In this document: positions 106 to 5,380 of the stretch, piece by piece
Position numbering within the stretch: position 1 is the first letter of the stretch
Layout of the letters: every line of letters starts with the position of its first letter
IMG/VR virus record: IMGVR_UViG_2667527898_000018
Strand: one strand, 5' to 3'
Length of the DNA stretch: 5,380 bases
Source: a virus
Lineage: Duplodnaviria; Heunggongvirae; Uroviricota; Caudoviricetes
Position numbers and translations under genes: made by a program
Notes under the pieces: model-generated
Told to the model about the DNA's origin: nothing
Database searches by the model: none
The model's input: the letters and a program-made list of their open reading frames with translations, nothing else

Positions 106-339
106 TTATGCAGCCGATGCTCTACGCGATACGAACACTAGGTTTTCCTTTTTCACAGGTTTATAACCCGTGAAATTACGAGTAGCTTCTTCGATTGCAT
201 TCGCTTTATCAGGGGAAGCTCTTCGAAATCCATATGCAATCTGGTCAAGATAGCCAACTGAAGTTTTCGCTAATGCGGCGAGTCGCTTCCATTCCTCGCT
301 AGAAGCCTCTTTTCGCCAGCGTAGTAGTTCATTACTCAT
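106..339 (-). CDS. cro: Cro/YdaS-like small HTH DNA-binding protein (77 aa), in the cro position
   Basis: 77-aa ORF divergent from the cI-like repressor across a 113-bp operator region. RBS GGAGG (complement of 345-349) sits 5 nt before the ATG. The product has an HTH-like segment (LAALAKTSVGYLDQIAYGF) followed by RRASPDKANAIEEAT, typical of Cro/YdaS-type regulators. Call rests on position plus family pattern. Confidence 0.7.
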   Translation of the reverse strand: MSNELLRWRKEASSEEWKRLAALAKTSVGYLDQIAYGFRRASPDKANAIEEATRNFTGYKPVKKENLVFVSRRASAA

Positions 340-452
340 TAGTGCCTCCGTTTATCACACAGAACAACTTTACCATTTTGATAAATCAACCGCAATGTAA
401 ATTTATCATATTGCGTATTTATCCATTTGCTAAATAGAGGGAAAATTGTGAG
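340..452. promoter_or_regulatory. Divergent immunity operator/promoter region (OR-like) between cro-like and cI
   Basis: AT-rich 113-bp divergent intergenic region with three copies of a 7-bp core: ATTTATC at 401-407 and 417-423, and its complement GATAAAT at 380-386. A 15-mer AATTTATCATATTGC (400-414) recurs almost identically at 2848-2862. Candidate cro promoter on the minus strand: -35 TTGCGG (complement of 390-395), 17-bp spacer, -10 TAAAGT (complement of 367-372). Confidence 0.6.
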
Positions 453-1157
453 ATGGAAAACAAAGATATTCGCAAATCGAATCTGGCGTTTTTGCTAGAT
501 GAGCATAAAAAAATCGCGGGTAACACTAATGCAAGCTTTGCCGATAAGCTTGGGGTTAGCCCTTCTCAACTCACGCAAGTCTCCGGTGAAAAAAGCACTC
601 GAAACATAGGGGATAAACTAGCAAGAAAATTTGAAGCCGCGCTTGGGTTACCTAATGGGTGGCTTGATTTGGTACATGATGTAACACCAATTGCATCATT
701 CTCAGATTCTTTAACTTTTGTCGGTCAGGTAAGAAAAGGGTTAGTGCGCGTGGTTGGTGAGGCAATTCTTGGTGTTGATGGTGCCATCGAGATGACCGAA
801 GAGCGCGATGGGTGGCTCAAAATTTATAGCGATGATCCAGATGCCTTTGGTCTTCGTGTGAAAGGAGACAGCATGTGGCCCAGAATAAAATCAGGAGAAT
901 ATGTACTCATTGAGCCTAACACCAAAGTATTCCCGGGTGATGAGGTGTTTGTCAGAACCGTTGAAGGACACAACATGATTAAGGTTCTTGGCTATGACAG
1001 AGATGGAGAATACCAATTTACAAGCATTAACCAGGATCACAGGCCTATAACGTTGCCTTATCATCAAGTAGCAAAGGTGGAGTATGTAGCTGGTATTCTG
1101 AAGCAATCTCGCCATCTGGATGACATCGAGGCAAGGGAGTGGCTGAAAAGTTCGTGA
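453..1157 (+). CDS. cI: Phage CI/LexA-type repressor with C-terminal S24 peptidase (autocleavage) domain, 234 aa
   Basis: N-terminal HTH (NASFADKLGVSPSQLTQVSG); C-terminal S24 signature with catalytic Ser in GDSMWP and a downstream Lys (NMIKVLG). Divergent from the cro-like gene across an operator-rich spacer. Confidence 0.9.
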   Translation: MENKDIRKSNLAFLLDEHKKIAGNTNASFADKLGVSPSQLTQVSGEKSTRNIGDKLARKFEAALGLPNGWLDLVHDVTPIASFSDSLTFVGQVRKGLVRVVGEAILGVDGAIEMTEERDGWLKIYSDDPDAFGLRVKGDSMWPRIKSGEYVLIEPNTKVFPGDEVFVRTVEGHNMIKVLGYDRDGEYQFTSINQDHRPITLPYHQVAKVEYVAGILKQSRHLDDIEAREWLKSS

Positions 1158-1237
1158 CTTCATCGTCACATAGCTGGTAACCAGTGGCCTGAAGAGACGT
1201 TTGGGTGATGTACATAGCATTTCTGGATAAAAATACA

Positions 1238-1281
1238 GATTCCCTTTATGGGAAATGAATCTATAATTCCCAAAGAGGGAA
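1238..1281 (+). promoter_or_regulatory. Candidate higB promoter with two palindromic operator-like sites
   Basis: Perfect -10 TATAAT at 1262-1267, flanked by two palindromes of identical architecture TTCCC-N5-GGGAA at 1240-1254 (TTCCCTTTATGGGAA) and 1267-1281 (TTCCCAAAGAGGGAA). No good -35 is evident. RBS-like AGAGGGA at 1274-1280 lies inside the second palindrome. Confidence 0.5.
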
Positions 1282-1293
1282 CAAAATCGGATT

Positions 1294-1581
1294 ATGAAGG
1301 TCTTAAACGTAGAGAAGCTTCACAGTTTTAGCCAGAAGCACAATCAGGCCAAGGGGGCTTTAGACTCTTGGTATGATGAAGTGATAAGAGAAAACTGGAA
1401 AACGACTCAAGACATACGGAATAGATTTAATTCTGCCGACTTCCTTCCTAACAACAGGGTAATTTTTAATATAAAAGGCAATAACTATCGGCTCGTTGTC
1501 CAAGTTGTTTACCAGGCAGGAATGGTCATAGTTGAAAGAGTTGGAACTCATGCAGAGTACGACAAGTGGAGGCTTAAATGA
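1294..1581 (+). CDS. higB: HigB-family type II toxin (RelE/ParE superfamily mRNA interferase), 95 aa
   Basis: C-terminal region FNIKGNNYRLVVQVVYQAGMVIVERVGTHAEYDK matches the recalled HigB pattern (E. coli HigB: FNVGGNELRVV...REVMTHKEYD). Toxin-first gene order is typical of higBA. Stop overlaps the next start in ATGA (1578-1581). Confidence 0.85.
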   Translation: MKVLNVEKLHSFSQKHNQAKGALDSWYDEVIRENWKTTQDIRNRFNSADFLPNNRVIFNIKGNNYRLVVQVVYQAGMVIVERVGTHAEYDKWRLK

Positions 1582-2234
1582 ATCGAACTAGCTGGCGCAT
1601 CATTAAAAATAGTGAAGAGCATGCTGCAGCTATGGAAAGGCTCATTGAACTTGCGTCTAGTGATTTACAACCTGGAACTGAAGATTTTGATGAGTTTGAA
1701 CTACTAGGCTTGCTTATCGAGCACTATGAGTCACGCGAGTTCCCTATGGACAAGCCAGATCCCATAGAAGCAATCAAGTTCCGTATGGATCAACAAGGCC
1801 TCTCTTATGCCGATATGAAACAATACATTGGCTCAGCATCTAAAGTATCTGAGGTCTTAAATCGTAAGCGTCCATTAAGTCTTTCAATGATCCGTAGACT
1901 ACATGACGGACTTGGAATTCCTGCAGATATCTTAATTCAAGATATGAGCGCAATTGAATGGAGCCTAGTTGACGCAGAGGAAGAAGAAACAGCCATGACT
2001 AGCGTCATTGCTCGGTGTGAGTCAGCCGTCACATCACCTTCTGCTTATTTCGCTGAAAAGGCTACAGAATCTTACTTTTCAAAAATGTTGTTCAGCGCAG
2101 TAAGGGGTAACGGCAAATGCAAAGAAAAACGGAATGTTTTTTCTTTGATAAGTAACTTGTCATCAAGTTTCACAGCGGCTAGCAACCTGAATGACGAAAT
2201 GACTTCTGACGGAAATTACTTATTATTACCATGA
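1578..2234 (+). CDS. higA: HigA-family HTH antitoxin with ~96-aa C-terminal extension (candidate chaperone-addiction segment), 218 aa
   Basis: Residues ~67-122 (KFRMDQQGLSYADMKQYIGSASKVSEVLNRKRPLSLSMIRRLHDGLGIPADILIQ) match the HigA HTH as recalled from E. coli HigA (…MDQYGLTLSDLPEIGSKSMVSRVLSGKRKLTLEHAKKLATRFGISPALFID, which ends there). This ORF continues ~96 residues further. Start overlaps the higB stop (ATGA) and its stop overlaps the next start (ATGA, 2231-2234). Confidence 0.85.
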   Translation: MNRTSWRIIKNSEEHAAAMERLIELASSDLQPGTEDFDEFELLGLLIEHYESREFPMDKPDPIEAIKFRMDQQGLSYADMKQYIGSASKVSEVLNRKRPLSLSMIRRLHDGLGIPADILIQDMSAIEWSLVDAEEEETAMTSVIARCESAVTSPSAYFAEKATESYFSKMLFSAVRGNGKCKEKRNVFSLISNLSSSFTAASNLNDEMTSDGNYLLLP

Positions 2235-2635
2235 AAATTGAACTCATTAGCAAAAAAGTTGAACGCTTGGTTATGACACGGCTAGAAGGCGATTCAACAG
2301 CAAAAAAATCCATAAAAACAACCGTTAATCTAAATAATGAACTTTACACTAATGTGAAGGATTCAAAGCTATTTAGAGTGAGATATTTTGCCTCCGTAAC
2401 TATTGAAGGCAGGCTTGAGATGGACATCACATACGACTTTGACTTCCGGTCAGAAGATGATTTTTCTCATGAAATGGCAAAATCATATGAGGTAAGGTCC
2501 ATTGCTCCCAATATGGCATATCCCTATATAAAAACATATGCCGAGCAAATTATCCTCATGTCAAACCTTGGTAGGTTCACTCTGCCTTATTTTGATTTCT
2601 TGGCCAATCCCATGGAAACGAACAGTAATAAGTGA
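2231..2635 (+). CDS. SecB-like chaperone (candidate TAC chaperone), 134 aa
   Basis: C-terminal region SIAPNMAYPYIKTYAEQIILMSNLGRFTLPYFDF aligns with the recalled E. coli SecB segment [33 protein letters not shown] (PN..PY, (R/K), L.P, (N/D)F). Size is close to SecB (155 aa). Translationally coupled to the extended higA. Confidence 0.7.
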   Translation: MKIELISKKVERLVMTRLEGDSTAKKSIKTTVNLNNELYTNVKDSKLFRVRYFASVTIEGRLEMDITYDFDFRSEDDFSHEMAKSYEVRSIAPNMAYPYIKTYAEQIILMSNLGRFTLPYFDFLANPMETNSNK

Positions 2636-2643
2636 AATTCCCC

Positions 2644-2670
2644 ACCCGGCCTCAGCGCCGGGTTTTCTTT
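2644..2670 (+). terminator. Rho-independent terminator ending the cI/higBA-secB transcription unit
   Basis: GC stem CCCGGC (2645-2650) / GCCGGG (2657-2662) with a 6-nt loop, followed by TTTTCTTT (2663-2670), 10 nt after the SecB-like stop. Confidence 0.7.
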
Positions 2671-2772
2671 GCCCCACGTTCGCCCACCTAAAAACACATA
2701 ATCGATTGTATTTATTGAAAAACTGATAGATACAACTTGCTAAACAACGCAATCCAGATCTCCCTCAAATCT

Positions 2773-2893
2773 CTTTATTTATCCTGTCGAATTCCTACAA
2801 CAAAATAAAACACCATAAGAATCAATACGATATTTGAAAACCAAGAGAATTTATCATTTTGCTATTGCCATTAATTTATCATTCCGATAAAGT
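2773..2893 (+). promoter_or_regulatory. OL/PL-like operator-promoter region for the early-left operon
   Basis: ATTTATC core at 2777-2783, 2849-2855 and 2874-2880. The 15-mer AATTTATCATTTTGC (2848-2862) is 14/15 identical to the OR copy at 400-414. Palindrome TTTATC-ATTCC-GATAAA at 2875-2891. Candidate PL: -35 TTGCCA (2865-2870), 17-bp spacer, -10 TAAAGT (2888-2893), the same -10 hexamer and spacing as the candidate cro promoter. Confidence 0.5.
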
Positions 2894-2961
2894 TCACCCA
2901 TCAGCAGGACGCACTACTCACCAGGGCGGTGAATATACAACGATTCGAATATGAATCTACG

Positions 2962-2976: not shown

Positions 2977-3141
2977 AATAACCAAAGTGAACTTTGGGGT
3001 GTGGTGAAGGGTTCATGGACGGGAATATGTCGCACGTAAAGCGGCGAGGCCTGCGGGACTATTGCCGAATTGAAGTAGGCCGAAACAGGTCGAAATGGGT
3101 CTCCCACCTACCACACCACCAAAGTTCATCAGGAGGTCTAT

Positions 3142-3525
3142 ATGACACGCAGAACTCAGTTCAAAGGCAATTCACGTTCTCGTCGTCGTGAGCGTTTAAA
3201 GGTAAAGGCATTAGCTAACGGCGTACTGGCCCGCGAAGAAGCAATAAGTTCAGAAGTATTACACCGCCCTACTCTAAGCAGAGCGCAGATTCAGGCTAAA
3301 GGTACTCACGAAACGCCTGAGCGCATAGAAGACGCTAAGCCAGTTAAGTTCATGGCACAGGACGTGATCTGGCAGCAGAAAGAATACAGACGCAATCTGG
3401 AGCGAGCGACCATTGTGTACGCGAATGAGTTTGGACATAAGCAACCAGAAACTGGTGTATGTCTTCCAAACGTAGCCATTTACGCTGCAGGCTACCGGAA
3501 ATCAAAACAACTGACAGCAAGATGA
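3142..3525 (+). CDS. N: N-family transcription antitermination protein (P22 gene 24-like), 127 aa
   Basis: N-terminal arginine-rich motif GNSRSRRRERLKVKA resembles the P22 N motif GNAKTRRHERRRKLAIER. C-terminus …NVAIYAAGYRKSKQLTAR resembles the recalled P22 N C-terminus (…VALYAAGHRKSKQITAR). Strong RBS AGGAGG at 3131-3136; first gene after OL/PL and the boxB hairpin. Confidence 0.8.
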   Translation: MTRRTQFKGNSRSRRRERLKVKALANGVLAREEAISSEVLHRPTLSRAQIQAKGTHETPERIEDAKPVKFMAQDVIWQQKEYRRNLERATIVYANEFGHKQPETGVCLPNVAIYAAGYRKSKQLTAR

Positions 3526-3586: not shown

Positions 3587-4210
3587 ATGTCATCAATCCG
3601 CTTAACTACGAGAATGAAAGAGGAAATCGCTCGTAACGCTTTAATTAAGTCTGGGGTTTTCACTGAACTTGAAGAAGTAACAAAGTTAAAGAACCAGCTT
3701 GCACTTGACGCCAGAGTTATTGCGTTTGGCGGTAAAAAGAAAACTGAGGAAGTGGATCAGTTATCATCCAAGTTGGTAGCTATAAGTGAAGAACTTGAAA
3801 AGATGGGATGTTCATTTTACTCATACGATGTTAGTTCTACTTCAATTTATCTGACTGTATCTGGCAGAAGGGTTGGATGGCATTCATATGGGAAAGACGG
3901 CAACGGCAAAGATATATTGCTCCCTACTCCGACCAAAGATAAATGCATGTTTGACGCAGAGCACGAAATAACAAAAAGGTTTGATGAAATCTGCGCATTG
4001 CAACAAAAACTTGAAGCCAAGAAAAAGGATATCGAATCAAATGTATGGGCTGCTTTAAACTCAGTCACAACAGTTAAGCGACTTATTGAAGTTTGGCCTG
4101 AAAGCAAAGAATTGCTACCAAAAGAAGCAGATAAAGCAAGTACAGCACTTCCTGCTTTACGGGTAAAAGATTTGAATAAAATGATTGGACTTCCTTCCGA
4201 GGCCGCATAG
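3587..4210 (+). CDS. Hypothetical protein, 207 aa (early-left operon accessory gene)
   Basis: ORF track gives 3527-4210, but the ATG at 3587 has an RBS GAGAGGA (3574-3580) with ~6-nt spacing, so 3587 is the likelier start. Hydrophilic, Lys/Glu-rich, no family recognised. Its stop codon TAG (4208-4210) sits in the loop of a terminator hairpin. Confidence 0.6.
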   Translation: MSSIRLTTRMKEEIARNALIKSGVFTELEEVTKLKNQLALDARVIAFGGKKKTEEVDQLSSKLVAISEELEKMGCSFYSYDVSSTSIYLTVSGRRVGWHSYGKDGNGKDILLPTPTKDKCMFDAEHEITKRFDEICALQQKLEAKKKDIESNVWAALNSVTTVKRLIEVWPESKELLPKEADKASTALPALRVKDLNKMIGLPSEAA

Positions 4211-5106: not shown

Positions 5107-5178
5107 GTTTTACAGATAACTGGTCAGACGAAGAATTCATTCGTCAGATGAAAGAATTAATCGGTAACGAAGGATGAG
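5104..5178 (+). pseudogene. Possible 5' remnant of an early-left gene truncated by the IS insertion (24 codons)
   Basis: ATG at 5104 overlaps the kil-like stop in ATGA. The frame (MSFTDNWSDEEFIRQMKELIGNEG) runs to a TGA at 5176-5178 that coincides with the first bases of the putative IS terminal inverted repeat. No RBS judgement possible; could equally be a genuine micro-ORF or noise. Confidence 0.25.
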
Positions 5179-5380
5179 GTGTACTGGCAATAGCGGACAC
5201 TACCATTTGTTCTTTTTTTAAGTAGCTATCTGATGATATTTTTCCCTGAAGGCTGCCGGGGAGATATTCCCCAGACGAGAGTGACGACGCTGACGATTGT
5301 AGAAAATCTCAATGTATTCCCGTATTACTGAGATGGCTTCATCCCGGTTATTAAAACGATAGTAGCTCAGGCTCTCATAT
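5176..5380 (-). mobile_element. IS3-family insertion sequence, terminal inverted repeat and 3' end, continuing beyond the window
   Basis: Plus strand from 5176 reads TGAGGTGTACTGGCAATAGCGGACAC, resembling the recalled IS3 terminal repeat pattern TGATCTTACCCAGCAATAGTGGACAC. The adjacent minus-strand ORF encodes a typical IS3-family OrfB C-terminus. Boundary is approximate (about 5 bp either way). Confidence 0.7.
5218..5380 (-). CDS. IS3-family transposase OrfB, C-terminal 53 codons (partial; 5' part lies beyond the window)
   Basis: My minus-strand translation is …YESLSYYRFNNRDEAISVIREYIEIFYNRQRRHSRLGNISPAAFREKYHQIAT*, with the FYN..RRHS.LG..SP..F motif of the IS3-family integrase-core C-terminus. 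Stop codon is the complement of 5218-5220. Not in the ORF track because it runs off the window. Confidence 0.8.
   Translation of the reverse strand, partial: YESLSYYRFNNRDEAISVIREYIEIFYNRQRRHSRLGNISPAAFREKYHQIAT

Follow-up and report, generated by a model that had tools for sequence, protein, structure and literature searches.

A HigBAC toxin–antitoxin–chaperone module as probable exchangeable anti-phage cargo in the cI–PL slot of an Stx1/H-19B-type lambdoid prophage

In this study, we analysed a 5,380-nt lambdoid immunity region (IMG/VR record IMGVR_UViG_2667527898_000018; hereafter the window, to which all coordinates refer, cI reading left to right) and asked what lies between its cI repressor gene and its OL/PL region. 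What it very probably holds is a HigBAC toxin–antitoxin–chaperone (TAC) cassette for defence against phages, an exchangeable cargo of the cI–PL slot in a lambdoid prophage of the Stx1/H-19B type. The defence reading is supported because a near-identical system from E. coli NT1F31, different at 4 of 447 residues, protects experimentally. An earlier note on this DNA had proposed a higB-higA-secB-like operon in the place that rexAB holds in lambda, acting as exclusion or abortive-infection cargo. The operon and its placement hold, and the proposed role is supported by the NT1F31 system and by a census of the slot; for the further suggestion of a stress-triggered device we found no support. The higBAC module was already published in 2024, together with its role in defence, the way it senses phage and its location in the rexAB slot, and nothing in these is new here.

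HigBAC of NT1F31 was characterised by Mets et al. (bioRxiv 10.1101/2024.02.24.581848; Cell Host Microbe 32:1059-1073, 2024), who placed it downstream of cI, in lambda's RexAB locus. Their accessions (WP_112844290, WP_112844289, WP_112844288) are those annotated at the NT1F31 locus that we found by BLAST, to which the window shows 99.5% DNA identity over 1342 bp. Both loci have the same three genes with the same lengths and overlaps, 3′ of the same cI. Identity amounts to 93/95 residues for HigB (WP_112844290.1), 217/218 for HigA (WP_112844289.1) and 133/134 for HigC (WP_112844288.1), the substitutions, from window to NT1F31, being Q14R and I31R in HigB, R185Q in HigA and S27T in HigC. All eight residues named as functional in the paper, four in HigA and four in HigC, are kept in the window. 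The two carriers differ in backbone: the window has an H-19B-type N and belongs to an Stx1-type phage, whereas the NT1F31 prophage, at att-lambda, has a lambda-type virion and a different N.

Taken singly, the three co-oriented genes are consistent with this identification. The first is a HigB-family toxin gene by its match to PF09907 HigB_toxin (4.5e-30, over the cut-off of 27), with further matches to PADLOC PD-Lambda-2_A (2.2e-42) and, in the PDB, to E. coli HigB (5IFG/5YCL, about 7e-5). HigA gave a weak HTH_3 match in Pfam and a PDB match to HigA 5IFG_B, and its C-terminal region of about 96 residues matched nothing that was searched; W128, F158, F188 and Y214 stand at the published positions, which identifies the second gene as a helix-turn-helix (HTH) antitoxin with an aromatic-motif extension. 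The NCBIfam scan returned nothing for any of the three cargo genes, and HigC had no Pfam or meaningful PDB sequence match either, so that a fold comparison was needed. Beyond a PADLOC match to PD-T4-9_C (CmdC, 2.8e-11), an AlphaFold (AF2) model built from an alignment of 20 homologues (mean pLDDT 86) had as its best Foldseek hit M. tuberculosis Rv1957 SecB-TA with its ChAD peptide (5MTW, E 6.5e-7, TM 0.73), and also matched SecB of E. coli and H. influenzae with TM up to 0.76 (1QYN of E. coli, 0.76). At the level of the predicted fold, HigC is thus confirmed as SecB-like, and the pocket residues Y39, N41, R49 and D71 are present. Both gene junctions are ATGA overlaps. Since higC lacks a Shine-Dalgarno sequence and begins in such an overlap, its translation appears to be coupled to that of higA, as its sequence suggests.

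When the window (1941-2632) is compared with the allele of CUVM3 (L004 5285-6342), divergence is concentrated in the sensor parts. Nonsynonymous against synonymous codon changes number 14/2 in ChAD residues 139-218 and 16/12 in HigC, against 0/12 in HigA residues 1-138 and 3/2 in HigB. The aromatic residue at HigA 158 is kept in the CUVM3 allele (F to Y).

How the module would work can be taken from the experiments on the NT1F31 system, four residues different. There, HigBA is toxic without HigC and HigB blocks translation; HigBAC protects against lambda-vir and Bas25; lambda escape mutants carry a single-residue change, S54P, in gpV; HigC binds a gpV peptide (48-78; KD 250 nM) competitively with the ChAD of HigA; and inactivation of HigA is independent of ClpXP (bioRxiv 10.1101/2024.02.24.581848). 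By comparison, HigB of the window would be an mRNA interferase that blocks translation and is neutralised by HigA, whose 96-residue disordered ChAD would make it unstable unless held by tetrameric HigC through the four aromatic motifs. On infection, the nascent major tail protein (lambda gpV) would compete for the HigC pockets that hold the ChAD; HigA would then be lost and HigB freed, translation would stop, and phage production would be restricted.

Several points weigh against reading the window's cassette in this way. The published defence was obtained with constitutive Ptet expression on pBR322, rather than from the native promoter or in a lysogen, and the preprint names no trigger for non-lambda phages, Bas25 included (bioRxiv 10.1101/2024.02.24.581848). 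The -35 element of higBAC is poor, and a sigma-70 consensus scan missed the promoter. At Q14 and I31, HigB of the window differs from the assayed protein, so that the function of this allele would follow by comparison. Both residues align to non-conserved positions of E. coli HigB, and I31 also occurs in a widespread allele of Shiga toxin-producing E. coli (STEC), WP_000866443.1. The preprint contains no lysogen or native-promoter experiment (bioRxiv 10.1101/2024.02.24.581848), and our literature search found no paper reporting expression of higBAC in Stx lysogens.

That protection was seen only with constitutive plasmid expression also bears on an alternative, namely that the module is mainly an addiction device, stabilising the prophage or its immunity region by post-segregational killing, with defence as a side effect of overexpression. 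HigBA is described in the literature as first found as a plasmid-stabilising locus on Rts1, and the module is a self-contained, probably autoregulated toxin–antitoxin (TA) operon. We nevertheless consider this improbable: the trigger is specific and phage-encoded, with escape through a single gpV residue and direct binding to HigC, and RexA, BstA and Stk, which occupy the same slot in relatives, are exclusion systems and not addiction modules. The two roles are, moreover, not mutually exclusive.

The defence reading draws further on what the slot holds elsewhere. The order cI, cargo, terminator, OL/PL and N, as first described, was confirmed by open reading frames (ORFs), family scans and a terminator scan, which place a divergent cro and OR ahead of cI and higB, higA and higC as the cargo. 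The earlier note had taken 1158-2900 as the cargo interval; cargo does lie in this slot, but not over that extent. Homology of the window to three prophages with other cargo (L005, L006 and L007) runs to 1206-1211 and resumes at 2644-2645 in BLAST comparisons. The exchangeable cassette is therefore placed at about 1209-2643, and the flanks are common to other-cargo prophages. The terminator is shared with these three prophages and is part of the conserved frame, in the position of lambda t_imm. Homology to NT1F31, CUVM3 and E6, which have the same cI and a different N, ends at 2912.

Exchange can be followed behind a single repressor. In 2010C-3347 and CUVM3, higBAC follows the same cI protein (WP_000428098.1) behind which 2013C-3342 has a DUF3024 gene and two hypothetical genes; the window's cI is one or two residues away from those of NT1F31 (two), 2010C-3347 and CUVM3. 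Elsewhere the slot holds two small genes (RM8385), a 299-residue protein (SCU-482) or, in a 933W-type immunity region, a DUF3024 gene, a hypothetical gene and a Ser/Thr kinase gene. The higBAC genes thus have the marks of cI–PL slot cargo, being co-oriented with cI, placed before the terminator and swapped for unrelated genes in homologous prophages.

To put this into context, we took a census of 80 viral contigs encoding the cI C-terminal domain, in 75 of which both frame flanks were located; the earlier note had recommended such a comparison of related prophages. Between the flanks, these 75 contigs hold at least 21 unrelated cassettes. The commonest is the Stk kinase (24 contigs, PD-T4-6/mad6 profiles) and HigBAC comes second (10 contigs); others matched in PADLOC are RexA (9e-110, in one contig), BstA (1e-105), PDC-M63A/B, PDC-M66A and, weakly, PDC-M24. 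The cI–PL frame is a defence-cargo hotspot, and the presence of RexA itself in the same frame of a related contig, together with the placement by Mets et al., bears out the rexAB equivalence. Most cassettes in the frame (L018-L097) are without a PADLOC match, among them proteins of 299, 332, 348, 333 and 330 residues. These are candidate genes for defence or exclusion of unknown kinds, each with sharply drawn boundaries. This may have practical application, as most of the at least 21 cassettes are without known function and a slot delimited by the 3′ end of cI plus 50 bp and by the terminator is a convenient place to mine for new defence systems.

The cassette is not tied to one repressor. The HigBAC proteins of 15.03CC and 10034940-2 are identical to the NT1F31 ones, yet the cI that precedes them has another DNA-binding domain joined to the same C-terminal domain; at least two immunity specificities are thus found together with the cassette. 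Despite the unrelated N-termini, near-identity extends over the S24 domain at the C-terminus of cI and over the frame 3′ of it in these prophages (15.03CC L016 41001-41708 and 10034940-2 L017 41000-41707, against 453-1157). Such a shared domain and frame would give a recombination handle by which cargo cassettes could move between immunity types. In Salmonella and Klebsiella, too, the homologues have an S24 repressor on one side and N on the other. A Serratia homologue (L099 and L100, 3055-4405; HigC 63% identical) stands outside any cI–N slot, between a DUF927 gene and P22-type ejection-protein genes, with the same promoter and operator architecture.

A promoter of its own had also been claimed for the operon, and its TATAAT is indeed present, flanked by two 15-bp TTCCC-N5-GGGAA palindromes. 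A 50-bp promoter stretch is identical in four E. coli copies from complete genomes while adjacent bases vary, and it is kept in the Salmonella and Klebsiella copies; in Serratia, in another genomic context, the palindrome arms and TATAAT are unchanged, with differences in the 5-nt spacers and the flanks. In the 1998 H-19B record, two single bases of this stretch are missing, one of them inside the first palindrome. Since arms and TATAAT persist from one genus, and one genomic context, to another, the comparison shows the promoter to be, in all likelihood, part of the cassette. It was missed by the consensus scan because its -35 is weak; that scan was in any case uninformative here, finding fewer promoter-like sites than in shuffled sequence (8 vs 11). 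The palindromes, flanking the -10, fit putative operators for the HTH antitoxin HigA, and E. coli higBA is described in the literature as autoregulated through promoter palindromes. Transcription in the lysogen would then start at a HigA-autoregulated promoter. As no terminator-like site was found on the + strand between cI and higB, read-through from PRM/cI into higBAC is plausible and would probably add to it, both transcripts ending at the shared terminator at 2644.

Whether a carrier would trip its own defence depends on its virion genes, and we examined virion type and the gpV trigger region in seven carriers. The NT1F31 prophage, at att-lambda, has lambda-type virion genes and a major tail protein that is 239/246 identical to lambda gpV. 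In all four lambda-virion carriers (NT1F31, E6, 15.03CC and 10034940-2), the tail protein is identical to gpV over residues 24-187, which span the experimentally defined trigger (W36, S54, D61DED64, W67). Because the trigger region of their own tail protein is that of lambda, these carriers could be expected to set off their own defence on induction, an expectation from sequence that we hold as tentative and rather doubtful. Two of the four have disrupted essential genes (a frameshifted O; an insertion sequence (IS) in the lysozyme gene), and no firm conclusion on self-triggering can therefore be drawn. Neither self-triggering nor prophage induction with HigBAC is discussed in the preprint (bioRxiv 10.1101/2024.02.24.581848), and our literature search found no paper on it. 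If carriers did self-trigger, they may possess an undescribed means of self-immunity, comparable to the aba element for BstA; HigBAC in its native form may be set to respond to superinfection alone; or the module may impose a cost in burst that favours its pairing with unrelated virion modules, such as the window's Stx1-type tail.

The same tail-protein identity would suit a module that acts on the carrier's own lytic cycle, sensing its own late tail protein after induction and limiting or timing the burst. Such a role cannot be general, because the window's phage type (Stx1a JNE122398, BP-4795) is without a gpV homologue by tblastn and the carrier in CUVM3 is P22-like and lacks a tail tube. 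The disrupted genes in two of the four lambda-virion carriers speak against it as well, and we regard it as very improbable.

Compared with known systems, HigBAC shares with lambda RexAB the slot, from cI to the terminator before OL/PL, and the nature of lysogen-expressed exclusion cargo; it has no sequence or mechanistic relation to it. RexAB depends on PRM and PLIT, whereas HigBAC has its own operator-flanked promoter. RexAB consists of two proteins, for which membrane depolarisation has been proposed as the mode of action, and is not a TA system with a chaperone sensor. The M. tuberculosis HigBA1-SecB^TA (Rv1955-1957) TAC, to which the best PDB match of the HigC model belongs (Rv1957), is more distant: chaperone identity is about 16%, the window's ChAD is more than twice as long and has four aromatic motifs, and the mycobacterial system is chromosomal. 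To our knowledge, no phage trigger is known for the mycobacterial TAC. CmdTAC (PD-T4-9) and MqsRAC follow the same three-part logic with a homologous SecB-like chaperone and defend against phages, but they differ in toxins (the ADP-ribosyltransferase CmdT, and MqsR), in antitoxins and in phage spectrum, which is T-even (Vassallo et al. 2022, PMC9519451).

The strong PADLOC matches of the first two genes raised the question of whether the module is PD-lambda-2: the HigB-like first genes of the two are closely related (2.2e-42), and the N-terminal region of HigA (residues 5-127) has its homologue there too (3.8e-50). PD-lambda-2 also defends against lambda-vir, but its B protein ends in a peptidase domain rather than a ChAD, and a P4-antitoxin-like gene stands third (Vassallo et al. 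2022). We rejected this assignment: the match to the PD-Lambda-2_B profile covers no more than positions 3-125 of its 402, PD-Lambda-2_C was not found, and the third gene is SecB-like.

At 95% identity or more the cassette occurs in 88/5426 complete E. coli genomes, many of them STEC, including O26:H11 11368, O157:H7 86-24 and strain H19. It is present and unannotated between cI and N in the H-19B immunity record (AF034975.3), and it corresponds to ORF20-22 of BP-4795. RefSeq calls HigA a "helix-turn-helix domain-containing protein" and HigC a "hypothetical protein", so the identification has annotation value, as higBAC is still not named as such in RefSeq or H-19B despite such carriage. One might still suppose that this prophage, which has an IS600 right after kil and may be degenerating, and whose HigB Q14 allele is a minority one, on 39 contigs, carries the cassette in a silent or decayed state. 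The three ORFs are intact, however, the overlaps, functional residues, promoter and operators are conserved, and the exact protein sequences recur in many genomes, all of which makes decay or silence exceedingly improbable. The best phage matches of the window are Stx1a-converting phages (98.6-98.7%). Its features are collected in Table 1.

Table 1 Coordinates of features in the window and of the tail protein genes in lambda-virion carriers
Feature	Coordinates	Strand	Evidence
cro-like repressor gene, divergent from cI	106-339	-	ORF; PHROG 35 transcriptional repressor; annotated cro in H-19B, BP-4795
OR region: PR TTAGCA 433-428, TATGAT 410-405 on - strand; TTTATCA-type operator repeats	340-452		
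cI repressor, N-terminal DNA-binding domain and S24 autocleavage domain	453-1157	+	PF00717 Peptidase_S24, 3.8e-16
Left frame of cargo slot, conserved, common to prophages with other cargo	1158-1208	+	Homology to L005, L006, L007 stops at 1206-1211
Exchangeable cargo cassette: higBAC with own promoter/operators	~1209-2643	+	BLAST breakpoints against same-cI prophages with other cargo
Candidate higBAC promoter/operators, weak -35	1240-1281	+	TTCCCTTTATGGGAA 1240-1254; TATAAT 1262-1267; TTCCCAAAGAGGGAA 1267-1281
higB, RelE-fold ribosome-dependent mRNA interferase toxin, 95 aa	1294-1581	+	PF09907
higA antitoxin, 218 aa: N-terminal region and HTH, then ChAD residues 122-218 (nt 1941-2231)	1578-2234	+	
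higC, SecB-like TA chaperone, 134 aa	2231-2635	+	PADLOC, AF2 model, Foldseek
Intrinsic terminator, stem ACCCGGC/GCCGGGT at 2644-2663 and T run	2644-2671	+	Terminator scan
OL operators AATTTATCATT at 2848-2858, 2873-2883; PL -35 TTGCCA 2865-2870, -10 TAAAGT 2888-2893	2848-2893	+	
N antiterminator, H-19B type	3142-3525	+	PF25694 N_peptide, 1.2e-14; annotated N in H-19B
Major tail protein genes of lambda-virion carriers	NT1F31 L010 19668-20408; E6 L015 19630-20370; 15.03CC L016 21588-22328; 10034940-2 L017 20259-20999		

Some features of the remaining window deserve mention. The G+C content of the cassette is 0.40, against 0.44 for cI and 0.48 for N. To the right of N follow an Nmad5-domain gene, a DUF2528 gene, cIII and kil, and then the end of an IS600 (IS3 family; about 5175-5380, - strand), which lies just 3′ of kil and interrupts the recombination-gene region found in relatives; the prophage may for this reason be defective. 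A 13-nt inverted repeat, TTTGGGGTGTGGT (2993-3005) and ACCACACCACCAA (3110-3122), encloses some 100 nt within the long leader of N, just 5′ of the N Shine-Dalgarno sequence, and by analogy may form a leader hairpin like the RNase III-sensitive structure of the lambda N leader; an Rfam scan of the window at E <= 0.1 found no RNA family. The Nmad5 gene (nucleotide modification associated domain 5, 1.3e-71; 207 residues, 3587-4210) lies directly 3′ of N, where relatives have a gene for a 156-residue hypothetical protein, sieB or a TolA-like gene instead. Because relatives carry other genes there, this looks like a second variable cargo position.

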